Position numbers and translations under genes: made by a program. A stretch of 64,000 bases of DNA, from assembly GCF_056746865.1 (NCBI RefSeq), contig NZ_CM163382.1. One strand, given 5' to 3'. The first letter of the stretch is position 1. The number at the start of each line of letters is the position of its first letter. Shown piece after piece: positions 4,154 to 57,433 of the stretch. The notes below the pieces were generated by a model that worked only from the letters and a program-made list of their open reading frames with translations, was not told the DNA's origin and made no database searches.

Positions 4154-4165
4154 CACGCTACCGCC
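4154..4165 (-). promoter_or_regulatory. ops element (GGCGGTAGCGTG) in the waaQ leader, RfaH recruitment site within JUMPstart
   Basis: Plus strand reads cacgctaccgcc; the reverse complement is the canonical ops 12-mer, placed upstream of waaQ on its coding strand. Confidence 0.75.
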
Positions 4166-4516
4166 CCAGGCTCAACAGCTACCTGAATACTGATACCGCA
4201 CTGATATTGACGCGCTAGTGTATCACTTCTTTCGCGGCAATCCGACCCGAATGATTTTTAAGCACATTGTTGATTTTCAATAAAGAAATCAATCAAATAA
4301 AATCATTAGCAACCATATTCTTTCACTGTTGCTCTGCGATTCCTTCCTGCACGTACTGCAGAAATCAATGAATCGCATAAAAATACAAAAAAAGTATAGA
4401 TGTTCAGCAAGAATTGGCGGGTAAATTGCTATTTAAGTCAAAAACGGGAAAAGTAATGGTAAAGCCACAGCTAAATACATAGAATCCCCAGCACATCCAT
4501 AAGTCAGCTATTTACT

Positions 4517-11809: not shown

Positions 11810-12520
11810 TTTCAAATGCGCCTATAAGGCTCTCTTACCAGCCGCGCCCTAACAGGCGCACACGATCTGACATTTGCATCCAACTTCGTTACTTACGGCC
11901 CGTAAACGGGCTGCCCGGATAGGGAATCGATAACTGCTCTCCCATTTTATCCTCTTCAAGCTGGTGCTTTATGTAATCCTGTATCTTCGCCGTGTTCTTA
12001 CCCACTGTATCGACGTAGTACCCTCTGCACCAGAACTCCCTGTTCCTGTATTTGAATTTCAAATCACCAAACTGCTCGTAAAGCATCAGACTGCTTTTCC
12101 CTTTCAGATATCCCATAAACCCGGATACGCTCATTTTAGGCGGGATCTCCACAAGCATATGGATATGATCTGCACAGCATTCAGCTTCCAGAATCCGTAC
12201 GCTTTTCCACTCACACAGCTTTCTCAAAATACTGCCTATTGCTCTACGCTTCTCTCTGTAGAACACCTGTCTTCGGTATTTTGGCGCAAAAACTATGTGA
12301 TATTTACAGTTCCATCGGGTGTGCGCTAAGCTCTTTTCGTTCCCCATTGGGACCCCCTTTTGATTTCTTGTTTGACACTTGCAGTTGCCAGACCGCAAGG
12401 TGTTTTAACAAATCAAAAGGGGTTTTAATAACTGGCTCAAAGCTGAAAGCTTTCCGGAACCCCCAGCCTAGCTGGGGGTTTTCTGTGCACAAAAAAAGGC
12501 GACTCATCAGTCGCCTTAAA
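11810..12520 (-). mobile_element. IS200-family insertion sequence (about 0.71 kb, ends approximate)
   Basis: Contains an IS200-type tnpA plus two hairpins at the rph-proximal end (aaggcgactgatgagtcgcc+T7, and aacccccagcctagctgggggtt). The rph-pyrE gap is 777 bp against about 68 bp recalled for K-12. Confidence 0.7.
11889..12347 (-). CDS. tnpA: IS200/IS605-family transposase TnpA (HUH Y1 type)
   Basis: MGNEKSLAHTRWNCKYHIVFAPKYRR...HIHMLVEIPPKMSVS matches IS200 TnpA; 152 aa from the internal Met. Confidence 0.9.
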   Translation of the reverse strand: MGNEKSLAHTRWNCKYHIVFAPKYRRQVFYREKRRAIGSILRKLCEWKSVRILEAECCADHIHMLVEIPPKMSVSGFMGYLKGKSSLMLYEQFGDLKFKYRNREFWCRGYYVDTVGKNTAKIQDYIKHQLEEDKMGEQLSIPYPGSPFTGRK

Positions 12521-13365: not shown

Positions 13366-14229
13366 ATGATCCGCAGTATGACCGCCTACGCCCGGCGTGA
13401 AATCAAGGGTGAATGGGGGAGCGCAACCTGGGAAATGCGCTCGGTAAACCAGCGTTATCTGGAAACTTACTTTCGTCTGCCGGAGCAGTTCCGTAGCCTT
13501 GAACCTGTCGTTCGCGAGCGTATTCGTTCTCGCCTGACGCGCGGTAAAGTGGAATGTACCCTGCGCTATGAACCAGATGTTAGCGCACAAGGTGAGCTGA
13601 TCCTCAACGAAAAACTGGCTAAACAGCTGGTAACTGCCGCGAACTGGGTAAAAATGCAGAGTGACGAAGGGGAAATCAACCCGGTTGATATTCTCCGCTG
13701 GCCGGGGGTAATGGCAGCCCAGGAGCAGGATCTCGACGCGATTACCGCTGAAATTCTCGCGGCGCTGGATGGTACGCTGGACGACTTTATCGTCGCACGC
13801 GAAACCGAAGGTCAGGCGCTGAAAGCATTGATCGAGCAGCGTCTGGAAGGCGTCACCGCCGAAGTGGTCAAAGTCCGCGCCCATATGCCGGAAATCCTGC
13901 AATGGCAGCGTGAGCGTCTGGTCGCGAAGCTGGAAGATGCTCAGGTGCAACTGGAAAACAACCGTCTGGAGCAGGAGTTGGTTCTGCTGGCACAACGAAT
14001 TGACGTTGCCGAAGAACTGGATCGCCTCGAAGCGCATGTCAAAGAGACCTACAACATTCTGAAGAAAAAAGAAGCGGTTGGTCGTCGTCTGGACTTTATG
14101 ATGCAGGAGTTCAACCGCGAGTCGAACACTCTTGCGTCGAAATCTATCAATGCCGAAGTGACGAATTCTGCCATCGAGCTGAAAGTGTTGATTGAGCAGA
14201 TGCGCGAGCAGATCCAGAATATCGAATAA
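13366..14229 (+). CDS. yicC: YicC-family stress-induced protein
   Basis: 287-aa ORF MIRSMTAYARREIKGEWGSATWEMRSVNQRYLE. Confidence 0.95.
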   Translation: MIRSMTAYARREIKGEWGSATWEMRSVNQRYLETYFRLPEQFRSLEPVVRERIRSRLTRGKVECTLRYEPDVSAQGELILNEKLAKQLVTAANWVKMQSDEGEINPVDILRWPGVMAAQEQDLDAITAEILAALDGTLDDFIVARETEGQALKALIEQRLEGVTAEVVKVRAHMPEILQWQRERLVAKLEDAQVQLENNRLEQELVLLAQRIDVAEELDRLEAHVKETYNILKKKEAVGRRLDFMMQEFNRESNTLASKSINAEVTNSAIELKVLIEQMREQIQNIE

Positions 14230-14265
14230 GCTATCAGTAAAAATCACCAAGCAGCAAAAAACCAC

Positions 14266-14294
14266 AAAGCCCGCGAAATGTCGGGCTTTTTTGT
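14266..14294 (+). terminator. rho-independent terminator after yicC
   Basis: agcccgcgaaatgtcgggc stem followed by tttttt. Confidence 0.6.
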
Positions 14295-14336
14295 TATCAT
14301 GAGCTATCATAACGACGCAACAAAGCGCACAATATG

Positions 14337-14360
14337 CGTGTACATAGAGGTGTACATAAT
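14337..14360. repeat. left boundary direct repeat of the island (putative attL): cgtgtacatagaggtgtacataat
   Basis: 22 of 24 identical to 35327-35350; flanked by further TGTACA palindromes at 14365-14390. Confidence 0.6.
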
Positions 14361-14417
14361 GACTTTCATGTACATTGCTTTATGTACACACCCATATTCG
14401 ATATTCAGGTATTCGCA

Positions 14418-15677
14418 ATGCCAAAACTCACAGATATGCAGATCCGCGCATGGATAAAGGCGGGAGACAGATTTGATGGCAAGGCAGACGGCAACGGCCT
14501 TTATATTTGCTACCCCAAAAACTACACAGTCCCGTTCTGGCGATTCCGCTATAAGCTCGCAGGAAAGCAGCGGGCTATGGTTATAGGCTCTTACTCCGAA
14601 CTGTCACTATCAAAAGCCAGAGAAACAGCAAAAGAGCTGTCAGCCAGAGTTGCTCTTGGCTATGACGTAGCAGCAGAGAAACAGGAACGAAAAGCTGAAG
14701 CACTGGCAAAAATGGAGGCTGAGAAAAACGCCATGCGTGTTTCAGATCTGGCCTCCGAATACTTCGAGCGCCAGATACTTCCGAGATGGAAACATCCCGA
14801 TATCCTTCGCCGGAGAATTGATAAGGATATTAACCCCTGCATTGGGCATATGAAGGTGGAGGACGTTAAGCCACGCCACATTGACGACATGTTGAAAGGT
14901 ATCGTTGACCGAGGAGCACCAACGATAGCAACAGATGTATTACGCTGGACACGCCGTATCTTTGACTATGGGATAAAACGCCATGCTCTGGAGATAAACC
15001 CTTGTTCAGCGTTTGAAGTATCTGATGCTGGTGGTAAAGAGGTTTCCCGCGACCGTTGGCTAACTCGCGATGAGCTTATCAGGCTATTCGAGGCTATGCG
15101 CACCGCAAAAGGATTCAGCCGCCAAAACGAACTGACATTTAAGCTATTGCTGGCACTATGCGTTCGTAAGATGGAGTTATGCGCCGCACGATGGGAAGAG
15201 TTTGATTTAGATAGTGCTGTATGGCATTTGCCGGAAGAACGCAGCAAAAACGGGGACCCTATTGATATACCTCTACCTTCTCCAGCCGTTGAATGGTTGA
15301 GAGAGCTACACACCTTTTCATGTAATAGCGCATGGGTGCTTCCAGCCAGGAAGATGCAAAACAGAATGATCCCACATATTCAGGAAAGCACTTTACCCGT
15401 AGCACTGGCTAAGGTTCGCGCCGAAATGCCGGATGTGCCTAATTTCACGATTCACGACTTCCGACGCACCGCACGTACTCATTTAGCAGCGTTGGGTGTT
15501 GATCCTGTTGTGGCGGAACGATGCCTCAATCATCGCATTAAGGGCGTAGAGGGGATTTATAACCGCCATCAGTATTTTAATGAGCGTAAAGCAGCACTGG
15601 CACAGTGGGCTGATCTGCTGGTGGCACTGGAAAGCGGAAAAGACTACAACGTAACGCCTCTCAGAAGGGCGAACTAA
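14418..15677 (+). CDS. int: tyrosine recombinase, P4/CP4-57 integrase family
   Basis: MPKLTDMQIRAWIKAGDRFDGKADGNGLYICYPKN... with C-terminal HDFRRTARTHL...NHR...IYNRHQY catalytic region; 419 aa. Confidence 0.9.
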   Translation: MPKLTDMQIRAWIKAGDRFDGKADGNGLYICYPKNYTVPFWRFRYKLAGKQRAMVIGSYSELSLSKARETAKELSARVALGYDVAAEKQERKAEALAKMEAEKNAMRVSDLASEYFERQILPRWKHPDILRRRIDKDINPCIGHMKVEDVKPRHIDDMLKGIVDRGAPTIATDVLRWTRRIFDYGIKRHALEINPCSAFEVSDAGGKEVSRDRWLTRDELIRLFEAMRTAKGFSRQNELTFKLLLALCVRKMELCAARWEEFDLDSAVWHLPEERSKNGDPIDIPLPSPAVEWLRELHTFSCNSAWVLPARKMQNRMIPHIQESTLPVALAKVRAEMPDVPNFTIHDFRRTARTHLAALGVDPVVAERCLNHRIKGVEGIYNRHQYFNERKAALAQWADLLVALESGKDYNVTPLRRAN

Positions 15678-15902
15678 CTGAATAGATTGAGCCTAGCTCG
15701 ACGGGGCGAAAAGCGGGAAGCCTTACCGCCTGGCTCAATCACAAAATAAGGCGCAGCGTAAAAGGTGACGCAATGAACGACTCTCATGAAACAACTGCGG
15801 TGCATAGAAATTAGACTGGCCCCCTGAATCTCCAGACAACCAATATCACTTAAATAAGTGATAGTCTTAATACTAGTTTTTAGACTAGTCATTGGAGAGC
15901 AG

Positions 15903-16268
15903 ATGATTGATGTCTTAGGACCGGAGAAACGCAGACGGCGTACTACACAGGAAAAGATCGCTATTGTTCAGCAGAGTTTTGAACCGGGAATGACGGTCTC
16001 CCTTGTTGCCCGGCAACACGGTGTGGCAGCCAGCCAGTTATTTCTCTGGCGCAAGCAATACCAGGAGGGAAGTCTTACTGCTGTGGCCGCAGGAGAGCAG
16101 GTCGTTCCTGCCTCTGAACTTGCTGCTGCCATGAAGCAGATTAAAGAACTCCAGCGCCTGCTCGGCAAAAAAACGATGGAAAATGAACTCCTTAAAGAAG
16201 CCGTTGAATACGGGCGTGCAAAAAAGTGGATAGCGCACGCGCCCTTATTGCCCGGGGATGGGGAGTAA
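15903..16268 (+). CDS. insC: IS2 transposase OrfA (InsC)
   Basis: [53 protein letters not shown] matches IS2 InsC. Confidence 0.9.
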
Positions 16269-17131
16269 GCTTAGTCAGCCGTTGTCTCCGGGTGTCGCGT
16301 GCGCAGTTGCACGTCATTCTCAGACGAACCGATGACTGGAAAGATGGTCGCCGCAGCCGTCACTCAGATGATACGGATGTGCTTCTCCGTATACACCATG
16401 TTATCGGAGAGCTGCCCACGTATGGTTATCGTCGGGTATGGGCGCTGCTTCGCAGACAGGCCGAACTTGATGGTATGCCTGCGATCAATGCCAAACGTGT
16501 TTACCGGATCATGCGCCAGAATGCGCTGTTGCTTGAGCGAAAAACCGCTGTACCGCCATCGAAACGGGCACATACTGGCAAAGTGGCCGTGAAAGAAAGC
16601 AATCAACGATGGTGCTCTGACGGGTTCGAGTTCCGCTGTGATAACGGAGAAAAACTGCGAGTCACGTTCGCGCTGGACTGCTGTGACCGTGAGGCACTGC
16701 ACTGGGCAGTCACTACGGGCGGCTTCGACAGTGAAACAGTACAGGACGTAATGCTGGGAGCGGTGGAACGCCGCTTCGGCAACGAGCTTCCGGCGTCTCC
16801 AGTAGAGTGGCTGACGGATAATGGTTCATGCTACCGGGCTAATGAAACACGGCAGTTTGCCCGGATGTTGGGGCTTGAACCGAAGAACACGGCGGTGCGG
16901 AGTCCGGAGAGTAACGGCATAGCAGAGAGCTTCGTGAAAACGATAAAGCGTGACTACATCAGTATCATGCCTAAACCAGACGGGTTAACGGCAGCAAAGA
17001 ACCTTGCAGAGGCGTTCGAGCATTATAACGAATGGCATCCGCATAGTGCACTGGGTTATCGCTCGCCACGGGAATATCTACGGCAGCGGGCCAGTAATGG
17101 GTTAAGTGATAACAGGTGTCTGGAAATATAG
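16226..17131 (+). CDS. insD: IS2 transposase OrfB (InsD), DDE integrase domain
   Basis: 301-aa ORF overlapping insC in another frame, as in IS3-family frameshifted transposases. Confidence 0.9.
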
Positions 17132-18090
17132 GGGCAAATCCAGAAATTTATGGCAGGAATCAGGTATTCCACCTTTGGACTACTGCACGATAGAGCGAGC
17201 ATCAAAATTATTAAATTGTGAAATTGATGATATATGGCATTGGAAAGATAGACTACATATAGACTTTTATGTCTATGCTGACTTTCTTGATTTCATTGAA
17301 GCTGATGCCACCATCCACTTCAAAAAAGATGCTGATTTTATAACTGATTTATTACTTATGTACCCAGAAGAAGTAAGGTTTACATTTCCTTTTCTTATTA
17401 CCAGCGCAAGCAACGAAGTTTATATCCCAGCATCTGAAAGCGGTGCTTATGAGCTATTTTATGCACATAAACCACTGACAGTTGAAGACAGAGACAATAA
17501 AAATGTTTTTGAACAAATTGGCAAAAACTCTTTTATTGTAAGAAAATCAATTGCATGTGGATTGTTGCGTGTACGCGGTAGTACAAAACGACATTATCAT
17601 TCACAAGAATGTGGAGAGCCATATGTGCGACTTGAAGCAACATTTGATTGTGATCTATATAAATTCAAAATGCAAAGTTCCCAGATTCACCTGAGTAGCC
17701 TGTCAGATAAAAACATTTATATAACAAAGGCTGATTTAGAATACCTTCACGACGCAAAGGTTAATGGAAGTTTTGACGCAGCTAAGAGCAAAAAACGATA
17801 CGAAATGGCGGTAGAACAGGAACTAATACCTGAAATAAAAAATAGCAACCATAATGCCGAGAGACATGCTGAAAACAGGGAAAAACTTTTCAAATCAGCA
17901 ATATATCTTTTGTCAAAGTATCCTGATGAATGCCGTGGCAAAAAGAAAGAAATAAGCCCTGAGAAGTGGCGGGATTGCATAGTGGCTCATAAAGACGAAA
18001 TTCCACCGTTAGCAATCACAAATGAAGATGTGATTTTGAGACACTTACGTGCTGCCGCCAACGGTAAGGGGTAGAGTAGCTAACTATTCA

Positions 18091-18117
18091 GGCACAGTAT
18101 CATTACTGTGCCTTTTT
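18091..18117 (+). terminator. rho-independent terminator after the orphan gene
   Basis: ggcacagta-tcat-tactgtgcc stem followed by ttttt. Confidence 0.5.
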
Positions 18118-18188
18118 ATTGTTCATATATGTACAGATACTTCCTCCCGTAACGAAGCAACAACTATCGCTAAGAGGTTACGGGAAGC

Positions 18189-18392
18189 ATGAACACCGAC
18201 ACTATTCCTACAAAAGGCTATATCAGACGCTTCCGCCTGGCTGAATTGCTGGGCGTTAGTGTATCCACCATCGACCGTAAAGTAAGAAACGGTTCACTAC
18301 CACGTCCGGTAAAGCTGGGAGAAAAAATAACTGCGTTTGATGCGGTTGAGATTCACAACTGGCTGGCAGAACGCCGCGGGAAGGTGGTCTGA
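18189..18392 (+). CDS. alpA: AlpA/Vis-family excisionase-like transcriptional regulator
   Basis: 67 aa; RFRLAELLGVSVSTIDRKVRNGSLPRPVKLGEK...WL pattern typical of AlpA. Confidence 0.85.
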   Translation: MNTDTIPTKGYIRRFRLAELLGVSVSTIDRKVRNGSLPRPVKLGEKITAFDAVEIHNWLAERRGKVV

Positions 18393-18823
18393 TGGAAAAG
18401 AAAAACCGCCCATTACAGGCGGCTAATTCAGATATTCGCGTATCTGATGTTACGCCCCTTACAAAATCCCTTCAAGCACCAAAGCGCACACCGAAAAAGC
18501 ATCGTGCCAGAGTCTATATGCTGCGTACTGGTATAGAGGGATGGACAGAAAATGACATTCTTCGCTACTGCCGTCTGTCTTCTGGTCGTAACTATGCAAC
18601 AGAGTTAGAACGCCAGCTTGGAATCACTCTGGAGCGTATCGACGAAAAGAATCCTGATGGTATCGGAACACACCTTCGCTACCGTTTCTCCTGCCGTGGT
18701 GATGTTCTGAAAGTGATCACTCATGTTAACCATCTTGCGAGCATAAATGATCACAACGGACTTTCTCAGCAGGAAATTGCCGACATTCTGAAACTCTACC
18801 CGGACGCGTTTAACGCCGCCTAA
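18392..18823 (+). CDS. hypothetical protein (143 aa)
   Basis: ORF start overlaps the alpA stop (ATGA); no recognisable motif. Confidence 0.6.
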   Translation: MEKKNRPLQAANSDIRVSDVTPLTKSLQAPKRTPKKHRARVYMLRTGIEGWTENDILRYCRLSSGRNYATELERQLGITLERIDEKNPDGIGTHLRYRFSCRGDVLKVITHVNHLASINDHNGLSQQEIADILKLYPDAFNAA

Positions 18824-18835
18824 CGGAGACTGAAA

Positions 18836-19669
18836 ATGAACATCGAAAAAAGCAGATTAATTTCTGAGGCCGCCCCTCATCTGAACGCCTCTCTGGGCAC
18901 AATTAACGGTAATGAATTTGCCGCAATTGTCCCGGTTATTCCTGGTCATATCGGTGGGCGTGAAACCAATATTGTTAGCGCAAAAGCGTTACACAAAGCG
19001 TTGGGCGTGGGAAAAGACTTCTCTACATGGATCACTGATCGCATCTCTGAATATGACTTCACCATTGGGCACGATTACTCAGTCCATAAAACAATTTCCC
19101 CAAATTTGGGGAAAAGCCCGAATGGCGCGGCTTACAGCAAGATTAAGCAGTCTGGCAGACCCGGCAAAGACTATCTGTTAAGTGTCGGAATGGCGAAAGA
19201 ACTGGCAATGATCGAACGCAATGATCAGGGTCGCGCTATCCGTCGTTATTTCATCCAGTGCGAGGAAGAATTACAGCGTAGCGTGCCTGAAATCGCCGCC
19301 CGCTATCGTCGCCAGCTAAAAGCCCGTATCAGTGCCGCAAACAACTTTAAGCCAATGTGCGATGCGCTGAATATGGCCCGTGCCGAGCAGGGGAAAACGA
19401 CGCAGCAACACCACTACACAAACGAGAGCAATATGATTTCTCGTATCGTTCTTGGTGGGCTAACTGCTAAGCAGTGGGCGCGGATAAATGGCTATTCTGG
19501 CGAACCTCGCGACCATATGAACGCAGAACAACTTGAGCACCTCTCATATCTCGAAAGCACCAATATCACGTTAATTGATATGGGCATGGAATATGAGCAG
19601 CGCAAAGGAGAACTCACCCGCCTGTCGCAACGCTGGCTCGCCAAGCGTCTGGAGGCGGTCCATGTTTAA
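18836..19669 (+). CDS. phage antirepressor-like protein (KilA-C/Ant-type C-terminal region)
   Basis: 277 aa; C-terminal segment ...GRAIRRYFIQCEEELQ resembles antirepressor proteins; assignment from memory. Confidence 0.55.
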   Translation: MNIEKSRLISEAAPHLNASLGTINGNEFAAIVPVIPGHIGGRETNIVSAKALHKALGVGKDFSTWITDRISEYDFTIGHDYSVHKTISPNLGKSPNGAAYSKIKQSGRPGKDYLLSVGMAKELAMIERNDQGRAIRRYFIQCEEELQRSVPEIAARYRRQLKARISAANNFKPMCDALNMARAEQGKTTQQHHYTNESNMISRIVLGGLTAKQWARINGYSGEPRDHMNAEQLEHLSYLESTNITLIDMGMEYEQRKGELTRLSQRWLAKRLEAVHV

Positions 19670-19837
19670 GCCGACAGGAACACCACAACCTCAAAAACGC
19701 TACAAAGATGCCCACGGAGCACTCGTTACTGTCGAAAGCGTGTCTCACAACCGAGTGACGTTTTATCGCGACGGGTATCAATCGCCATGCGTACAACCGC
19801 TGGCGCGCTTCATGAAGGAGTTCGCGGAGGTTAACAA

Positions 19838-20869
19838 ATGCTAACCGTCCAGAAGAAGATATTTTCACTGACTGCTATGTTGCAAAAATCCAGCAATATG
19901 ACAGCAAAGTCTGGCATTAATACAGCAGATACAAGCAAAGCTTATCATTTTATGGTGGTAGGAGCGGATGCCTTAACTATGTCAGAAATTACGGTCGATG
20001 GTGTTAGCGTTGAGAAGGTCAGCGGCTGCGCCAGAGAATTTCTGGTCGTAGATGGCTTTCTCTTCTCGCGTAGTGACTCCACAAAAACCTTCGTCCATGC
20101 GCGTGACGTTAACGAAATGAGCGCGATGTACTGTGCATCTGGTGCTTCCAATAGCGAGTTTTCGGAGTCCATAAAAAAGAGCTTGCCGTTATGCGGCAAC
20201 ACGGTTTATGGTTATAAGGCACCTCATAAAACGGGTGCCGGGATTGGCCTCCCGCTGGAGTTATCGGCGATACATGACGCGCCAGCGTCTTTTTTTGTAT
20301 CGGCGCACACGCACACCTTATCAATGGTGGGCTGTATGGGGCTACCTTCGGGTAGGCTGGTTTCCGATAACGCCAGTAAGGCCAACTCCGTACAGTCCAC
20401 CGCCAGCAAGATTGGTCTCTTCTGCGGTGGTTATAACAAGCCAACGTTATCGGAGGATGCCACATGCTGGCTACTACCCCTACCCAAAAACCGCAATTTA
20501 TCTGGATTATCGCCGCAGTTCGCCGCGATTGCCCGACAATTACCGCCAAAATTCATCATATTGCTGCCGAGTCTGAACGTGATGCTCGCCGTTCTCTGGT
20601 GCGCGATCACGTCTGCTTTTTTGCTGGTCGTATCCGCATGGAGGTGGCTCATGATTAAAACCTACGATGTGCATATGGATCCCCTCGAACGCACAAGCCA
20701 GATCATCACACTGACAGAAGTGATTAACGACATTCTGGTGAGCAACTCTCCCTCACGAGACGAAAGACTGAAGGCGTTACTCGCGATATTGGATCTCGCC
20801 GTTCGTGACGTTCATTTCCTGCTGGAAGGTGGCGAAATGCCAGTAAAAACGGGGGCAACCAATGAATAA
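19838..20869 (+). CDS. hypothetical ORF (343 aa as read; may instead be two or three small genes)
   Basis: Long open frame, but an alternative-frame small ORF 20464-20658 has a GGAGGA SD and an in-frame internal start MIKTYD at ~20654 has a GGAGG SD; gene structure unresolved. Confidence 0.3.
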
Positions 20870-21056
20870 CTCAATTAATACCCCTCGCCTTACGTCCGCA
20901 CTTCAATTAATCGAGCAAGCAGCGGCTGTCCTGGTTGCTGTCAGTCTTTCGGCTGAAGAAATGGACGCTACTGATGTCGTGGATGCGATTAAAGCGTGCT
21001 CATCTTTGGTTAACGATGCCCGTGCAGAGCTGGTAATTCTTGGGGGTGAAAAATGA
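20862..21056 (+). CDS. hypothetical small protein (64 aa)
   Basis: Start overlaps the upstream stop; part of a co-directional overlapping ORF chain. Confidence 0.45.
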   Translation: MNNSINTPRLTSALQLIEQAAAVLVAVSLSAEEMDATDVVDAIKACSSLVNDARAELVILGGEK

Positions 21057-21316
21057 ATATCAACTTAATTTATCGTCATCCGTGTGAGCTGGAAATTGAA
21101 TCATTGCTGAGCCGTGAAGAGCCATATCCAGACACATTCACTCTTGCAGATCGCACGACTGAACGGCTTACCAGAGCGCGCACAGGTCTGGTTCATGTGA
21201 TGAATGAGATTCTTCCATCGGTGGGAGGGGAACAGGCGACAGTAATCACTAGCTGGCTACAAAAAGTTACCTCTCTGATAGATATCAGTTTAATCGATGC
21301 GGAGAGTGCGAAATGA
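21053..21316 (+). CDS. hypothetical small protein (87 aa)
   Basis: ATGA overlap with the upstream ORF. Confidence 0.5.
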   Translation: MNINLIYRHPCELEIESLLSREEPYPDTFTLADRTTERLTRARTGLVHVMNEILPSVGGEQATVITSWLQKVTSLIDISLIDAESAK

Positions 21317-21534
21317 CCAACATCCAGCTCATTGAAGCGCAATGTCGCATCGAACAGGTTCAGACTGTTTTAGGGTTCTGGCTTGAAGGGGCCAGCCCCA
21401 GCAACAGAGACAAGTTAATGATTGGCGCGGTTATGTCACTGCTCAATGGCGTACCAGAAGCTATTCAGGAAGCAGACGAATTGTTGGGCAAATATGAGTT
21501 ACAGAATCATTCAGGCGAGGCGAAACATGAATAA
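21313..21534 (+). CDS. hypothetical small protein (73 aa)
   Basis: ATGA overlap with the upstream ORF. Confidence 0.45.
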   Translation: MTNIQLIEAQCRIEQVQTVLGFWLEGASPSNRDKLMIGAVMSLLNGVPEAIQEADELLGKYELQNHSGEAKHE

Positions 21535-22129
21535 TTTCTTAACGTTCCATGCAGAAGCAACGCCTGACGGCGTAAACATCATGCACCGCAGCAACGATGG
21601 CATGACAGAACGCGTTGAGGCCGTCTCATATATTGATGCCGTAAATCGTCTGGATGACGGGGATTATGACGATAAACCAGATGAAGGTATGTCAATACAT
21701 CTCGCTATTGCCGATGGCGGCAACCAGGGATATTTCGATTACACATCACAGCATAACGTCATTATGTGGAGATGGCTGATCGCAACAGTATTCATGCTGG
21801 AAATGAGAGAGGAAAACGGCACTGTCAGCATCATTGATGATACTGGCAATCCTTCCGAAGTGGCTGTTTATTCCAACGGCATCGTCGCCATGCCGCTGTA
21901 TCCAGTAGCAGAGCGCCTCGCTATGGCAAACAACATTGAGGGCGCGATGATAGAACGTTTTGGCATCGAGTCTGGCACAGAACGCGCCATCATTTTCTAC
22001 AGAGCCATGATGGATGTGGAACAAGGAGCACTGACTCCATTTGGTCGTGAAACGCTTGCTGAACTTCACAACAGCTTTATAGCTGAACTGAATGAAAACG
22101 GCATGCCAGCGGAACCAGTGACGCACTAA
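21527..22129 (+). CDS. hypothetical protein (~201 aa, start at MNNFLTFHAE)
   Basis: Internal start overlapping the upstream stop; acidic protein. Confidence 0.55.
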   Translation: MNNFLTFHAEATPDGVNIMHRSNDGMTERVEAVSYIDAVNRLDDGDYDDKPDEGMSIHLAIADGGNQGYFDYTSQHNVIMWRWLIATVFMLEMREENGTVSIIDDTGNPSEVAVYSNGIVAMPLYPVAERLAMANNIEGAMIERFGIESGTERAIIFYRAMMDVEQGALTPFGRETLAELHNSFIAELNENGMPAEPVTH

Positions 22130-22139
22130 GGATGGAGCC

Positions 22140-22481
22140 ATGATTACTAAAAATTTCCGACTGAATGCGCTGGCAAATAAGTATGCGTCGGCACTGTATA
22201 ACCACATTACCTCCACCAGCGGCGGGGACTATTTCATGATTGATGCGGACGGAGAGGCCGTCCGTGTGGAAATCGTCAATGGAGTAAAAGGCGTTCGCAG
22301 CCTGATCGATAGTTACGCACTGGCAGCCATGAAAGTGTTCTACCCGCAGTGGGAAACCGTGGGGATCGAGCTTCTTGATCGTTGCGTCACTAAGGACGGA
22401 TTGACTGACGCCGGGCGTGAGATATGGCAAAGCATGGTTAATGACATGGGCGCAACTGTAGCGGGAGGTTCTCATGCGTGA
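22140..22481 (+). CDS. hypothetical protein (113 aa)
   Basis: Co-directional, closely spaced. Confidence 0.55.
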   Translation: MITKNFRLNALANKYASALYNHITSTSGGDYFMIDADGEAVRVEIVNGVKGVRSLIDSYALAAMKVFYPQWETVGIELLDRCVTKDGLTDAGREIWQSMVNDMGATVAGGSHA

Positions 22482-22845
22482 AAATGCAGAAATGGCGCTT
22501 AGCTCCGCAATCGGAGAGCAGGTGGCAAAGATTGCTGGTGCTGTGTGGATTCATAACCTTCATTCTACTGGTGAAGAGAAAATGGCAATTCAGACGCCAG
22601 AGGGACGCACCATTACTACATCTCTGAAGCCGTCAGATGTTTGTGATCTGATTTGCGCATTCATGTACCCAGCAATGAGGACTGTCCACGGCGATAAGTG
22701 GAAACTTGCGACAACCGCTGAATTTGATATGTGGCTAAACAATGATGGCATGCTGACTGATTACGGAATAACCAAGTGGCAGATGCTGGTTAGCCATATC
22801 GCAAACGCTATAGACCACGTGGGGTACGGTGATGCGAAACATTGA
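22474..22845 (+). CDS. hypothetical protein (123 aa)
   Basis: Overlaps neighbours at both ends. Confidence 0.55.
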   Translation: MRENAEMALSSAIGEQVAKIAGAVWIHNLHSTGEEKMAIQTPEGRTITTSLKPSDVCDLICAFMYPAMRTVHGDKWKLATTAEFDMWLNNDGMLTDYGITKWQMLVSHIANAIDHVGYGDAKH

Positions 22846-33115: not shown

Positions 33116-33665
33116 CTAATAAGCCCGGTACGCCGGGCATTTATGCCCCTATTATTCATGAATCGCTTTTTCTAGAAGGTATGCGACAAACGTTAAGTGA
33201 CATTGCCTACACATTCGGGGCGGGATTTCAAATCCGCTCCCAGTTGATGGGGGGCGTTACAGTACGCGCATATCCGCTTTATGTGAAACAGGAAGATTTT
33301 TCTGATATCACTGCCACAGCAAAACACCAATTTCGTGACCAGTACGCGCGCGAGGGGCATCAGTTGCAAAAAGTTTTGCAACTGCGTCCGACCAGTACAC
33401 ACACGATGGCGGTGGATACCATAAAACTGTTCTCTACATGAGACAGAGTGGTGGTGATGTGTTGATTATCGGCGTATATGCGCACAGGTCGCGCTATGAC
33501 GATGTTTTATGCGGGTACACCAATCACATGTATCTGATGTGATAAATCGCGTTACATGACCTCTCTGTTGTGCTGGTGGTTATCACGACGTTCTGAATCT
33601 GGCTTTTGTCTGATATTTTGCGACAAGTACGCGCGCGTAGCATCGACAGCATACACATTGGATAT

Positions 33666-33887
33666 TCATTTTGTGACCAATGCGATAAGTAGCGGGATAA
33701 GCATTGATAAAATCAACAGGCCGATGATCCACTTTTGATTTTCACTGGCCTTATCTCTATTTTCATCAATCTTATCCATAATTCGACGCTCCAAGCCGTG
33801 CATATCACCGCGAATGGCAATTATCTCATTGCGAACATCCGAGAAGTGGTTGGCTTGATGTTCAATGTGTGGCGTTCTGCCTTTCAT
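33666..33887 (-). CDS. small protein with C-terminal transmembrane helix (73 aa)
   Basis: C-terminal WIIGLLILSMLIPLLIALV. Confidence 0.4.
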   Translation of the reverse strand: MKGRTPHIEHQANHFSDVRNEIIAIRGDMHGLERRIMDKIDENRDKASENQKWIIGLLILSMLIPLLIALVTK

Positions 33888-33966
33888 GCCTGATCCTCAC
33901 CCATCGTCACCACCTGCTGGTGTATAAAGGTATTGGCCCAAGCAGCTTTCCAATGGGCACTCATGT

Positions 33967-34422
33967 TTATACGCTGACCTTACAATCAATCACCGCTTTT
34001 AACTTTTCAGCATTGCTTCCCTGACGCTTCCACGCGCTGTAAATATCTTTATCCCACGCTTTACCAGCTTTTGTTTGATAGCCTGCTTCATTGATCCGTT
34101 CAGCTATCACACGCCCATTATCAAATCCCTGTTGGATGGTATCGGCAATGATCTTTATAACTGCCGTTTCGTTATATGGCTTTGGTGGGATGTTCGACTT
34201 TCCGGCAATAAGCGACGCAGCGGCTTTTTCCATGCGCTCCACCAGCCCAAGCATTCGTGAATCAATAGACTTTTCCGGCTGTCCCAGCTTCATGCGAATC
34301 GCATCAACAAGCCAGGAGGTTTTATCCCCTCCAGAAGCGAGAACAGACCGATTAAACTCATCCTGCAATTCAGATGGGATGCGGAACGCGACCAGATTAG
34401 ATTTGCTCATTGCAAAGACCAT
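33967..34422 (-). CDS. hypothetical protein, possible DNA-binding regulator (151 aa)
   Basis: Divergent from the PerC-like gene across the operator array; start may be at MSKSNL. Confidence 0.5.
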   Translation of the reverse strand: MVFAMSKSNLVAFRIPSELQDEFNRSVLASGGDKTSWLVDAIRMKLGQPEKSIDSRMLGLVERMEKAAASLIAGKSNIPPKPYNETAVIKIIADTIQQGFDNGRVIAERINEAGYQTKAGKAWDKDIYSAWKRQGSNAEKLKAVIDCKVSV

Positions 34423-34523
34423 ATCAGTGAGTAATATCCATACAGTATACCACTGTATAACACTGTTATACGCTCAAATATCAGCCAGAAAATAACGAAC
34501 CAATCACAAATCTATCGCTGTGT

Positions 34524-34645
34524 TGTTGGTTCAGAGCTGGGCTGTGTTGGTTCAAAATGAGTTGATGTTGGTTCAATATTTTAGAAAAAACGCAATAAAA
34601 ACAACGATCTTTACAAATTGAACCAACTGAACCAACTGAACCAAC
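34524..34645. promoter_or_regulatory. operator array: three TGTTGGTTCA copies at 21-bp spacing plus three tandem TGAACCAAC copies in inverse orientation
   Basis: tgttggttca at 34524, 34545, 34566; tgaaccaac x3 tandem at 34619-34645; tatataat -10-like box at 34661-34668 before the 34682 start. Confidence 0.55.
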
Positions 34646-34681
34646 ACCTTTTTGCTTATCTATATAATCTGAGAGGCAGAA

Positions 34682-34969
34682 ATGATAAGGGACAGGAAAG
34701 CTGAAGAGCTGGAGTCAAAAGGGCTATACCGGAGAGCTGCCGCACGATGGGCAGAAGTCATGATGCTGGCAGATGGCGATAAAGAACGTGAACATGCAGC
34801 AAACAGACGCTCTGAATGTATCCGTAAGGCGGCACGCCCACCAGCAACTACAGACAAATTCGGAGATTTAAGACAGGCAGTTAAGCGGACTCATTCGGCT
34901 CTTGGTATGGATGAGGAAGCGAGAGGGTACTTCAGGCGTTATCGCGATAAAGATTGCCAGAGACAGTAA
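34682..34969 (+). CDS. PerC-family transcriptional activator-like protein (95 aa)
   Basis: AEELESKGLYRRAAARWAEVM resembles the PerC/Pch family signature; from memory. Confidence 0.55.
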   Translation: MIRDRKAEELESKGLYRRAAARWAEVMMLADGDKEREHAANRRSECIRKAARPPATTDKFGDLRQAVKRTHSALGMDEEARGYFRRYRDKDCQRQ

Positions 34970-35326
34970 TGCTCTATCTGTTTTGGCAAATTACCCCTCA
35001 CTTTGAAGGGATCGGAGCTATAAAAATGGTGTTATCCGGCTTCCTGCATTGCAGGTTTTCGAAAAAATCAATGGGTTAGGTCATCGTGCAAATTTGCACT
35101 CTGCCAGCCAACGCAATTTCTCGTTGGCGAAAATATCAGGTATTTACTGATTCTGCCGCCTCACAAGGATGCGAGAACCTTATAAAACCTAATATCGCAG
35201 AGCTTAATTGTGTACAGCAATTTCACGAGCAATACGCGCGCGCAGGACAACAAGCCTGAACATGGTTACACACCTCGATCGTGAGGGATGTAGGCAATGG
35301 CTTCTGACCAAAGCACCCGAAAAAAC

Positions 35327-35350
35327 CGTGTACATAAGGGTGTACATAAT
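35327..35350. repeat. right boundary direct repeat of the island (putative attR): cgtgtacataagggtgtacataat
   Basis: 22 of 24 identical to 14337-14360. Confidence 0.6.
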
Positions 35351-35580
35351 CAAAAATCGCATTAGGAAGAAACCAGATACAATGCGGCATTGAAGCCAAT
35401 ACTCTACAAACAGATCCAAACTCGTAACGCCAATTCTTCCTTTTCAGCCTTCACAAATGCCGCCCACTCAAACAGAGCGGCATTTTTCCTCCCCGCAACA
35501 TTCAATTCTGTTTTGCGTGCCTGCTCCAGATTTTGCGATGTTTTTTTGCCCAGCGCAGTGAGAACGTGAGATACTTACAA

Positions 35581-35596
35581 CTGTATATAAACACAG
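35581..35596 (+). promoter_or_regulatory. LexA box (CTGTATATAAACACAG) in the dinD promoter
   Basis: Matches the CTGT-N8-ACAG SOS box, about 45 bp upstream of the dinD start. Confidence 0.8.
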
Positions 35597-35641
35597 TTGT
35601 AGACTTACTTTCCTTGCAATCGATATCACATGGAGTGGGCA

Positions 35642-55114: not shown

Positions 55115-55406
55115 CTGCTTTTCCTTGATGCTATAGGGGTGCTGAGACCGATAACGCATTTTGTAAACCATCCCTGTGAGAGCGAATATTCCGATATCTG
55201 GTTATTAATTTATGATTCTTGTTTTATGTGATCGTGGTAGCGTTAATTTCGCTCATATATCATTGTAAAATATGGGTTTTATATGAACTATAATGCTTTC
55301 GTGATAATACGCTGCGTGTATTAGGCGGAAAAAACTGATCTGGGGGATGTAGAAACTCAAGGAAGTAGCTATAATGCGCCCCGCCTCCATGTAGCAATCG
55401 AGGCGC

Positions 55407-55501
55407 GGAAGATCGTCGTCTCCGGTGAGGCGGCTGGACTTCAAATCCAGTTGGGGCCGCCAGCGGTCCCGGGCAGGTTCGACTCCTGTGATCTTCCGCC
55501 A
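55407..55501 (+). tRNA. selC: tRNA-Sec (selenocysteine, UCA anticodon)
   Basis: ggaagatcgtcgtctccggtgaggcggctggacttcaaatccagttggggccgccagcggtcccgggcaggttcgactcctgtgatcttccgcca matches selC; 95 nt with long variable arm and 3' CCA. Confidence 0.95.
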
Positions 55502-56138
55502 ATTAGCCTCTTCTGACATTCTCCAACCCCTTGTAATACTGTCATTCCAGAGATTTTCTATCTGCTCAATATTCAATCGGCTTCAGGAATACCTGATCAA
55601 AAGTTTTGTGATGGACGATGAGCGACTGAAGAATCCGCCTGTCGGTTCTTCTGTCCTCGAACGCATCCGCGATATGCGCGCCAGCATGTGCCGTGTTTAT
55701 TTGCAGGTGATTTGCCCCCTGCTGGCTCTCAGCCAACTGTATCGCCATTAAGGTGAAGATATTGTTTTACACGCTCCATAACACCCTTTTTTATACGACG
55801 ATTCTATTCCTTTAACAGCTGGCGAAAAAAACTGACCTGTAAACTTCACCAATAATCAGACTGTCATCAAGATTAATTTTTTCATTTAATATATCAAATC
55901 AACTTGTTTTATTTTTACTATCAAAAATAGCTCATTGCCTTACTATAATTAATATATAAATTCGGTGATTAATTCTTAACATGCTTTTGCTAATAATCTC
56001 AATTGCTGGCCCTATAATATTGCGCTAGCATTGCTTTCTGGTTGTATCAGCGACACTCAAAAATTCTTAATACAATACTCATTCGACTGGTACTTATTTG
56101 TAACTCAGTTATATTTTGTCGCCCGGTGATTCAGAAGA

Positions 56139-57323
56139 ATGCAAAAAACGGCTACCACTCCATCAAAAATACTTGATCTCACTGCCGCGGCATTTTTACT
56201 TGTCGCCTTTCTGACGGGTATTGCGGGCGCTCTCCAGACTCCTACCCTAAGTATATTCCTCGCAGATGAACTGAAAGCCCGTCCTATAATGGTAGGTTTT
56301 TTCTTCACCGGTAGCGCTATTATGGGAATTCTTGTCAGTCAATTTCTGGCAAGACACTCCGATAAACAAGGCGACCGTAAATTACTGATCCTGCTATGTT
56401 GCTTATTTGGAGTGCTGGCCTGCACGCTTTTTGCGTGGAATCGCAACTACTTCATTCTCCTCTCTACGGGCGTACTTCTGAGTAGTTTTGCTTCCACCGC
56501 AAACCCGCAAATGTTCGCCCTCGCCCGTGAACACGCCGACAGAACAGGCCGTGAGACGGTAATGTTCAGTACATTTTTACGTGCTCAGATCTCGCTTGCC
56601 TGGGTTATCGGGCCACCGCTCGCTTATGAGCTGGCAATGGGATTTAGTTTTAAAGTGATGTATCTCACCGCAGCCATCGCATTTGTTGTTTGCGGGCTGA
56701 TAGTCTGGTTGTTTTTGCCATCAATACAAAGAAATATTCCTGTCGTTACCCAACCCGTAGAAATTTTACCCTCCACCCATAGGAAGCGGGATACACGGCT
56801 ACTTTTCGTGGTTTGTTCAATGATGTGGGCGGCGAATAATCTCTACATGATAAATATGCCGCTATTTATTATTGATGAACTGCATCTAACCGATAAACTG
56901 GCTGGAGAAATGATTGGTATTGCTGCCGGTCTGGAAATTCCGATGATGTTAATCGCAGGCTATTACATGAAACGTATTGGCAAGCGGCTATTAATGCTCA
57001 TTGCTATCGTGAGTGGAATGTGTTTTTACGCCAGCGTACTCATGGCGACGACTCCGGCAGTTGAGCTGGAATTGCAAATTCTAAATGCCATCTTCCTTGG
57101 TATTCTCTGTGGTATCGGCATGCTTTATTTTCAGGACCTGATGCCTGAAAAAATAGGCTCTGCGACAACGTTATATGCAAATACTTCACGCGTCGGCTGG
57201 ATTATCGCCGGCTCTGTTGACGGAATTATGGTTGAAATCTGGAGCTACCACGCGTTGTTCTGGCTGGCGATAGGGATGTTGGGTATTGCGATGATTTGCC
57301 TGCTGTTTATTAAAGATATTTAG
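56139..57323 (+). CDS. setC: sugar efflux transporter (MFS)
   Basis: 394-aa ORF MQKTATTPSKILDLTAAAFLLVAFLTGIAGALQTPTLSIFLADEL. Confidence 0.93.
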   Translation: MQKTATTPSKILDLTAAAFLLVAFLTGIAGALQTPTLSIFLADELKARPIMVGFFFTGSAIMGILVSQFLARHSDKQGDRKLLILLCCLFGVLACTLFAWNRNYFILLSTGVLLSSFASTANPQMFALAREHADRTGRETVMFSTFLRAQISLAWVIGPPLAYELAMGFSFKVMYLTAAIAFVVCGLIVWLFLPSIQRNIPVVTQPVEILPSTHRKRDTRLLFVVCSMMWAANNLYMINMPLFIIDELHLTDKLAGEMIGIAAGLEIPMMLIAGYYMKRIGKRLLMLIAIVSGMCFYASVLMATTPAVELELQILNAIFLGILCGIGMLYFQDLMPEKIGSATTLYANTSRVGWIIAGSVDGIMVEIWSYHALFWLAIGMLGIAMICLLFIKDI

Positions 57324-57433
57324 CTCACCTGTCTGGGCTAAGAAAAATCGGCGTGGCGCAAACAGAGCCATCCTCGCCATTTTTGCTATCATGCCTGCAT
57401 ACATAAACGACAAAACAGTATGCAGAGGGAAAA

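Follow-up and report, generated by a model that had tools for sequence, protein, structure and literature searches.

EcCIMP1, a 19,963-bp phage-inducible chromosomal island (PICI) of Escherichia coli MP1, is the only experimentally studied member of its satellite family (Pick, Stadel & Raivio 2025, PMC11773190). It excises and circularises only when the P22-like phage Kapi1 (vB_EcoP_Kapi1) is present, its excision requires its own int and alpA, and it is transduced at very low frequency and contributes to superinfection immunity (PMC11773190). The MP1 copy was first annotated as an incomplete prophage, the element scores only as an ambiguous 'Type C' in the de Sousa scheme and, according to its authors, EcCIMP1-like elements vary in the presence of an integrase (PMC11773190). 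The 3′ end of yicC is known as the attB of conjugatively mobilised elements, namely MGIVflInd1, SGI1-like integrative elements (IEs) and, in E. coli, IEEcoMOD1 (PMC8409611). Here, we analyse an island that separates yicC from dinD in a 64,000-nt stretch of contig NZ_CM163382.1 (GCF_056746865.1), referred to as the window, on which all coordinates are based. The island is very probably a phage satellite of the PICI type and the EcCIMP1 family, ~19.9 kb long without its 1.3-kb IS2 and inserted at the 3′ end of yicC. Both the type of element and the type of site are known, which makes this a mostly ordinary answer, but it corrects the anatomy of an island that roughly 5% of the complete E. coli genomes carry, in that the target is the 3′ end of the yicC coding sequence and the repeats near the island ends are probable arm sites, and it ties that island to the one relative that has been studied in the laboratory.

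An EcCIMP1-family island between yicC and dinD

Base-by-base alignment against the empty-site strain 118UI delimited the inserted DNA to 14230–35420 (21,191 bp). 118UI is a near-isogenic E. coli with an empty yicC–dinD site and 100% identity to the window across 8.6 kb near selC; its flanks matched those of the window at 1588 of 1590 positions on the left and 1729 of 1729 on the right. The only two flank mismatches lie 10 and 7 bases before the end of yicC, at positions 12 and 15 of the attachment core described below. In K-12, the yicC stop codon is directly followed by CTCGTAACGCC..., and the same sequence starts at 35421 in the window, upstream of an intact dinD LexA box (about 35583–35598). 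An earlier, sequence-only reading of the window had taken yicC and dinD to be neighbours in K-12 and had seen no tRNA at the junction. The adjacency is indeed seen in K-12, and neither end of the island carries a tRNA, the sole one in the window being tRNA-Sec at 55407. The island is site-specifically integrated and is absent from K-12 and from 118UI. Among 5,426 complete E. coli genomes, about 256–279 were carriers with the yicC att type.

The layout of the island was established by PHROG, Pfam, NCBIfam and Rfam searches of its approximately 30 open reading frames (ORFs) and of its DNA. Nucleotide identity to EcCIMP1 extends over 12.6 kb, reaching 94.6% at 18382–23853 (5.5 kb) and 98.7% at 26515–33646 (7.1 kb). 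Both elements have the same gene order from orf143 to a lipoprotein gene, with a PerC-family gene near the right end, and the order of the whole island (int-alpA-orf-ant-DUF4222-ash/icd-...-primase-...-DUF2824-gp7-gp20-SLT/gp16-lipoprotein-...-perC) is that of an EcCIMP1-like PICI. With IS2 subtracted and 11 missing bases added, the island measures about 19,866 bp, compared with 19,963 bp for EcCIMP1.

By contrast, the integrases of the two elements are only 29% identical and the AlpA proteins 36%, and EcCIMP1 occupies tRNA-Thr between proA and yagU, with IntS_1 and the core TCCTATTATC, whereas the island occupies the yicC 3′ end. The primase C-terminal domain (DUF927 in EcCIMP1, DUF5906 in the island), the adjacent iteron region and the right-end cargo also differ; the island has no second alpA gene (alpA_1), and the window copy carries IS2 and a damaged attR. 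The island is thus a member, with a different integration module, of a family that was described experimentally in 2025. This family swaps integration modules and keeps a near-identical P22-type ejection cassette.

Integration takes place within the yicC coding sequence

The attachment core consists of the last 21 bp of yicC, CAGATYCAGAAYATCGAATAA. The sequence-only reading had placed attB in the intergenic region, but integration is into the coding sequence. In attP, the 21-mer is CAGATTCAGAATATCGAATAA, a yicC 3′ end including the stop codon, and it lies between the P arm and the P′ arm. Alignment of attB, attP, attL and attR, together with the comparison with 118UI, identified the attL core of the window at 14209–14229 (+ strand) as CAGATCCAGAATATCGAATAA, the last 21 bp of yicC with its TAA stop. 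On the other side, only a remnant of the attR core is left at 35411–35420 (+ strand), CAGATCCA followed by AA, with 11 of the 21 core bases (GAAYATYGAAT) deleted.

Positions 1–11 of the attL core are host-type, whereas positions 12 and 15 are element-type, both differences being synonymous. The 3′ half of the core was element-type in all five attL copies examined and showed polymorphic host alleles in attR, which places strand exchange within yicC, on the 5′ side of core position 12. Top-strand cleavage by the integrase is predicted after CAGATTCA. Insertion of the element keeps the yicC reading frame and stop codon and adds a new terminator: a replacement intrinsic terminator for yicC lies in the P′ arm at 14266–14297 (stem 14266–14289 plus a T run).

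Joined ends of the element were found in public records of other strains. An attP with an intact core between both of the 24-mers described below is present in three of them (NRZ14408, Z1323CEC0013 and HB37). For NRZ14408, a separate 19.2-kb contig, 'phage_14408_2', carries attP, and the chromosome of the same strain also has attR. In Z1323CEC0013, attP lies on a 12.2-kb circular 'plasmid' record, pZ1323CEC0013_1-4, a deleted derivative from which most of the ejection cassette is missing, and in HB37 the attP junction lies between two head-to-tail tandem copies at yicC. Other strains thus contain this type of element joined at attP, as a circle or in tandem.

The two 24-mers are probable arm-type sites

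The two near-identical 24-mers noticed in the sequence-only reading are present as described, CGTGTACATAGAGGTGTACATAAT at 14337–14360 and CGTGTACATAAGGGTGTACATAAT at 35327–35350, and are identical at 22 of 24 positions. A search of the window that tolerated two mismatches gave no others, and none is expected in shuffled sequence. They were taken to bound the island; however, they sit 107 bp (left) and 70 bp (right) inside it. Each 24-mer consists of two copies of GTGTACATA spaced 12 bp, and all five exact copies of this unit in the window fall in the att arms, at 14338, 14350, 14381 (inverted), 35328 and 35340. The 24-mers had also been described as sitting in clusters of TGTACA palindromes. 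The TGTACA at 18130 (upstream of alpA) and the distal one at 35211 in the P arm are unconserved in other carriers and were not counted as sites.

The P′ arm (14230–14417, + strand), which is conserved in six other carrier or attP sequences, joins the terminator to arm-type repeats just upstream of the int start: GTGTACATA at 14338 and 14350, forming the left 24-mer, a degenerate copy, ATGTACATT, at 14368 and the inverted GTGTACATA at 14381–14389. The P arm (34970–35410, + strand) contains the right 24-mer with its two GTGTACATA units, ending 60 bp before the core, and an antirepressor relic. This relic, at 35021–35080 in non-coding DNA downstream of perC, is a 60-nt fragment of a Kapi1_032-like antirepressor gene that is 83% identical, with a 25-nt exact match. 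In attP, the 24-mers lie 60 bp upstream and 107 bp downstream of the core, in the same orientation and 188 bp apart, and they are kept in every carrier examined.

The integrase has arm-binding and catalytic domains, and the repeats lie on both attP arms and are distinct from the core, as in arm-site-dependent tyrosine integrase systems of the lambda/P4 type. Their position and repetition suggest that the 24-mers are probably pairs of arm-type integrase binding sites. The left set lies directly upstream of int and overlaps its promoter region, and so it may allow int autoregulation, which is therefore plausible. Arm-type sites of KplE1 (CPS-53) reportedly overlap the intS promoter region beside attL, suggesting autoregulation there; KplE1 has a different integrase and uses argW as its site.

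The attR core is repeatedly eroded

The damage to attR is not peculiar to the window. Among 14 carriers, we found at least ten attR core alleles, one of full length and the others lacking 2, 4, 5, 6, 7, 8, 9 or 11 bases, with two different 11-base deletions. All alleles keep CAGATYC(A) at the left, and the flanking DNA is almost invariant. PK12 and NRZ14408 are among the carriers with an intact attR. In a larger sample of 60 evenly spaced carrier records, 13 aligned through the core at unchanged length, 20 were shorter by 2–8 bases and the remaining 27 gave alignments that end in or at the core. The cores were intact in all three attP and all five attL copies examined.

Host yicC alleles differ from attP at the synonymous core positions 12, 15 and 18, and the attR deletions may therefore be scars left when recombination crossed a heterologous overlap. 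Abortive cleavage by the integrase may instead have produced them, or they may reflect selection for locked-in satellites. Their CAGATYC(A) anchor may mark the integrase cleavage point. On balance the window copy is probably immobile, because excision needs matching cores and 11 of the 21 bases are gone from its attR core. None of its main ORFs differs in length from the counterpart in intact relatives. The eroding attR core provides a lead on how a satellite may become locked in, through its host or through the element itself.

Two carriers, G749 (locus from 23295 onward) and 2014C-3338, have GCGACATATCTCC... after the attR core. The next annotated gene after the element in G749 is yicG, and dinD is absent, so that the element also occurs in a variant of the backbone in which its right flank is different.

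The island carries a P22-type ejection cassette

The part of the island that is most similar to EcCIMP1 contains an ejection module derived from a P22-like phage, with a complete set of gp14, gp7, gp20 and gp16 homologues (26920–33115, + strand; PHROGs 651, 598, 917 and 770). It starts with a conserved 53-aa ORF (26920–27081), which directly precedes the gp14-like gene in every family member seen; the product looks ribbon-helix-helix-like by eye and had no database match. There follow genes for a gp14-like DUF2824 protein (27098–27559, assigned by PHROG), a gp7-like protein (27553–28230; Pfam P22_gp7, 8.5e-73), a gp20-like protein (28230–29549; Pfam Inj_translocase, 1.2e-21), a 908-aa SLT plus gp16-like protein (29540–32266; Pfam SLT, 3.8e-12) and a 232-aa lipoprotein, MIKNLLLILSLSLLAGC... 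(32417–33115), distant relatives of which carry DUF4136. All of these genes are on the + strand. By sequence, no solved structures were found for the gp7-, gp20- and gp16-like proteins.

The phage homologues of the cassette all belong to P22-like podoviruses. A Serratia P22-like prophage has the same order, with DUF2824, P22_gp7, Inj_translocase, SLT plus gp16 and a 62%-identical lipoprotein, followed by Arc and the tailspike. What the satellite carries is therefore a single contiguous segment of a P22-type late region. Another homologue of the lipoprotein lies in the tail-gene moron slot of a lambda-like Rouxiella prophage. The lipoprotein is a candidate superinfection-exclusion factor.

Identity to Kapi1 drops along the cassette, from 83% for gp14 to 58% for gp7, 26% for gp20 and 24% for gp16. 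Within gp14, a 292-nt stretch (27191–27482, compared with Kapi1 28041–28332) is 97.6% identical, a similarity that suggests recent exchange between satellite and helper. Nucleotide matches to Kapi1 that might reveal a pac-site or terS mimic were limited to this stretch and the 60-nt antirepressor relic, with nothing near Kapi1 terS. A 17-kb IMG/VR contig, IMGVR_UViG_3300014071_000035, encodes a primase, a single-stranded DNA-binding protein and a cassette 78% identical to that of the window, and the family therefore has more distant members.

The gradient along the cassette would fit a division in which the assembly-facing gp14 and gp7 stay compatible with the helper, and the channel-forming gp20 and SLT-gp16 diverge. 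We raise, as a tentative proposal that we consider possible but not likely, that EcCIMP1-type satellites re-equip stolen virions with their own DNA-delivery machinery, with the recurrent attR deletion hotspot as a second, independent novelty. If so, satellite particles could inject into lysogens that carry a helper-type prophage and shut out its ejection proteins, and such lysogens are exactly the cells in which a satellite must arrive. In turn, incoming helpers could be excluded by the linked lipoprotein, which would fit the reported contribution of EcCIMP1 to superinfection immunity. The cassette is a lead on how satellites of headful-packaging podoviruses deliver their DNA to new hosts. A literature search for satellites with ejection proteins found only the EcCIMP1 paper.

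To the right of the cassette is a variable cargo region (33181–34969, mixed strands; PHROG phrog_994/10396 and homologue annotation) with an 86-aa ORF (+), a 151-aa ORF (33967–34422, −) and the PerC-family regulator gene (34682–34969, +).

Integration, regulatory and replication genes

The left half of the island, all on the + strand, begins with a gene for a 419-aa tyrosine integrase (14418–15677; Arm-DNA-bind_3 1e-18, Phage_int_M 7e-16, Phage_integrase 9e-17; PHROG phrog_1). The sequence-only reading had called this a P4-family integrase, in agreement with the P4-type domain architecture found by Pfam. Directly after the int stop codon is an int-alpA RNA motif (RF02996; 15686–15752, 60.6 bits against a gathering threshold of 35.8), listed as a small RNA in Rfam. 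The slot between int and alpA (15773–18074) holds a 321-aa cargo gene with a G+C content of about 38–42%, which is split after codon 13 by IS2, with its ATG at 15773 and its remainder at 17148–18074; homology to G749 breaks off at 15776 and resumes at 18202. The 1,331-bp IS2 (15812–17142, + strand) has terminal inverted repeats and is flanked by a GAAAT duplication (15807–15811 and 17143–17147), and its TnpA and TnpB scored 275.8 bits (cut-off 229) and 707.8 bits (cut-off 597) with NCBIfam.

Next are alpA, encoding a 67-aa helix-turn-helix regulator of the excisionase family (18189–18392; PHROG phrog_66, with a weak TIGR01764 match), and a block at 18392–20210, assigned from PHROGs and the annotation of RefSeq homologues, that comprises orf143, the Ant/AntB antirepressor gene (18836–19669), DUF4222 (about 19665–19844) and the coding part of ash (from 19838). 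Two RNAs follow, an isrK-like RNA (20219–20295, 64.3 bits against 50) and a C4 antisense RNA (20320–20407, 77.1 bits against 45). The ribosome-binding site of an icd-like ORF, CGUUAUCGGAGG at about 20443–20454, is complementary to the loop of C4, UUUCCGAUAACG. Judged by sequence, the isrK/C4 pair represents a putative antisense immunity of the P1/P4 type in a PICI-type element. A 343-aa 'ash' ORF was rejected as a single gene, since it spans the two Rfam RNAs and the icd-like ORF.

The icd-like ORF (20464–20658) and seven small conserved ORFs occupy 20464–22845 (PHROGs and homologue annotation). They are followed by the gene for a 784-aa primase-helicase (22829–25183; Zn_Ribbon_Prim, Toprim_3 and DUF5906; PHROG phrog_2249), the C-terminal half of which is unlike the TOPRIM-DUF927 allele of EcCIMP1, with a blastn breakpoint at 23853. 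Three ORFs of 58, 83 and 245 aa and an iteron cluster make up 25170–26430, a region not common to EcCIMP1. The iterons (26323–26430) are direct and inverted GGTACAG(G) units, and this segment varies together with the primase C-terminal domain; the cluster is probably the cognate origin. A second short repeat, ACCTATACC, was seen at 25213–25316, inside the 58-aa ORF.

Searches for the function of the cargo gave little. The ORFs at 25170–26317 had no function-assigned match, with a single borderline hit (E 7e-4) to an unannotated PHROG, and the 321-, 245-, 232- and 151-aa ORFs had no Pfam or NCBIfam match, the 321-aa ORF also having no PHROG or PADLOC assignment. For defence systems, PADLOC returned one insignificant match only (PDC-S31, 15.5 bits).

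Several of these features had escaped the sequence-only reading, namely the ejection cassette, IS2, the C4, isrK and int-alpA RNAs, the damaged attR and the 2025 description of the family.

Flanking sequence

Outside the island, no island lies directly beside tRNA-Sec (selC, 55407–55501); setC, yicL and nlpA are next (55300–63900). The type III secretion translocon gene sctE is annotated near the window end in identical strains. Rfam also identified an STnc490 Hfq-binding small RNA (12357–12480, − strand, 146 bits) and a JUMPstart element (4154–4192, − strand, 55 bits).

Alternative explanations

We considered whether the 24-mers could be a duplicated att core, so that the element would span 14337–35350 in an intergenic attB with one 24-mer. 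Near-identical direct repeats close to both ends, unique in the window, would suit such an arrangement. However, an empty site with a single 24-mer, which the sequence-only reading had proposed as a check, was covered by none of the 5,426 genomes, and the real empty sites lack 14230–14360 and 35351–35420, 201 bp in their entirety; moreover, attP holds both 24-mers, 188 bp apart around the yicC-derived core. This explanation is almost certainly wrong. Equally negligible is the probability that the island is an integrative mobilisable element using conjugative plasmids or integrative and conjugative elements, like MGIVflInd1 and the SGI1-like IEs. The shared target, the yicC 3′ end, speaks for it through IEEcoMOD1 in E. 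coli (PMC8409611), but relaxase, mpsA/traG/traN/sgaC and rdfM-like genes were not detected by PHROG or NCBIfam (no search for oriT was made), the genes are those of a phage satellite in character, and the close relative EcCIMP1 is transduced by a phage.

Two further explanations involve phages. The island might be the decayed remnant of a P22-like prophage, with the ejection genes left over and the rest unrelated. The gp14, gp7, gp20, gp16 and lipoprotein genes do copy a contiguous P22-like late block, and a copy of EcCIMP1 was itself initially called an incomplete prophage. Yet no coat, scaffold, portal, terminase, tail (accessory factors, tailspike) or lysis genes were found in 14230–35420, the int-alpA-ant-C4-primase architecture is conserved with intact ORFs in the copies examined, and the ejection module is shared at 98.7% identity by elements whose int, att and primase modules differ, of which EcCIMP1 is experimentally mobile. 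We consider a remnant very unlikely. A P4-like satellite exploiting P2-like helpers would explain the P4-type integrase architecture, alpA, the C4/CI-type antisense RNA, the 'ash' gene and the Toprim primase-helicase, but it too is hardly credible. None of the approximately 30 ORFs had a PHROG match to psu, delta, sid or epsilon (profile matches only), and the primase lacks the P4 alpha signature, scoring 20.4 bits for TIGR01613 against a cut-off of 108.7 and having no PF03288, with DUF5906, Toprim_3 and Zn_Ribbon_Prim as its only Pfam domains. At most two of the seven P4-defining components (PMC8628076) are present, integrase and alpA, and the virion genes carried are P22-type, not P2-type. 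The suggestion in the sequence-only reading of a satellite- or PICI-like element distinct from canonical P4 is borne out by these results and by the kinship with EcCIMP1.

Several points weigh against assigning the island to the EcCIMP1 family as a functional PICI-type satellite. The attR deletion and IS2 suggest that the window copy is decaying, and its induction, packaging and helper are proposals made from 64 kb of the genome. The int and alpA that EcCIMP1 requires are so different here that regulation is argued by analogy, and the argument for integrase binding at the 24-mers is one of position and repetition. Searches with PHROG and NCBIfam found no terS, rpp, ppi or pac determinant; EcCIMP1 itself transduces very rarely.

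Proposed life cycle of the satellite

These observations can be combined into a model of an EcCIMP1-family satellite at yicC. The element entered the terminal 21 bp of yicC by site-specific recombination of the tyrosine-recombinase type, and the N-terminal Arm domain of the integrase would bind the GTGTACATA pairs on both sides of the attP core. In the quiescent state, the C4-type antisense RNA would hold icd and the downstream genes off. A P22-like helper would trigger alpA, leading to excision and then to replication by the primase from the iterons. About two genome units of ~20 kb would fill one P22-type headful. The satellite would supply its own gp14, gp7, gp20 and gp16 to the virions carrying its DNA, and the tandem dimer in HB37 would fit integration of a two-unit headful dimer. 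The window copy is probably locked in place because of the loss of 11 of its 21 attR core bases.

Comparison with known systems

Similar to the Gram-negative PICIs EcCICFT073 and EcCIEDL933, the island has int and then alpA in the same orientation, followed by primase and replication genes, and helper dependence would be expected. It differs from them in its larger size (20 kb) and in carrying four P22-type virion genes in place of an rpp, terS or capsid-morphogenesis module, none of which was found. In two respects, then, the island departs from PICIs in general, having no recognisable packaging-hijack module downstream of the primase and possessing virion genes; this agrees with the 'Type C' remark of the authors of the EcCIMP1 study.

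With P4, the island has in common the Arm-domain integrase architecture, alpA, a Toprim primase-helicase and a C4/CI-family antisense RNA that precedes the replication genes. It differs in having neither psu, delta, sid and epsilon nor the P4 alpha signature, and its allied helper would be a P22-like podovirus with headful packaging. MGIVflInd1, IEEcoMOD1 and the SGI1-like IEs share the yicC attB with the island, but they are mobilised by conjugation and their cargo is unrelated. The cassette itself is best compared with that of P22 and other members of Lederbergvirus, in which the same four genes stand in the same order, 14-7-20-16, and the SLT-gp16 fusion of the island has counterparts in phages Dewey and Huey. 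In the island, which is a satellite, these four are the only structural genes.

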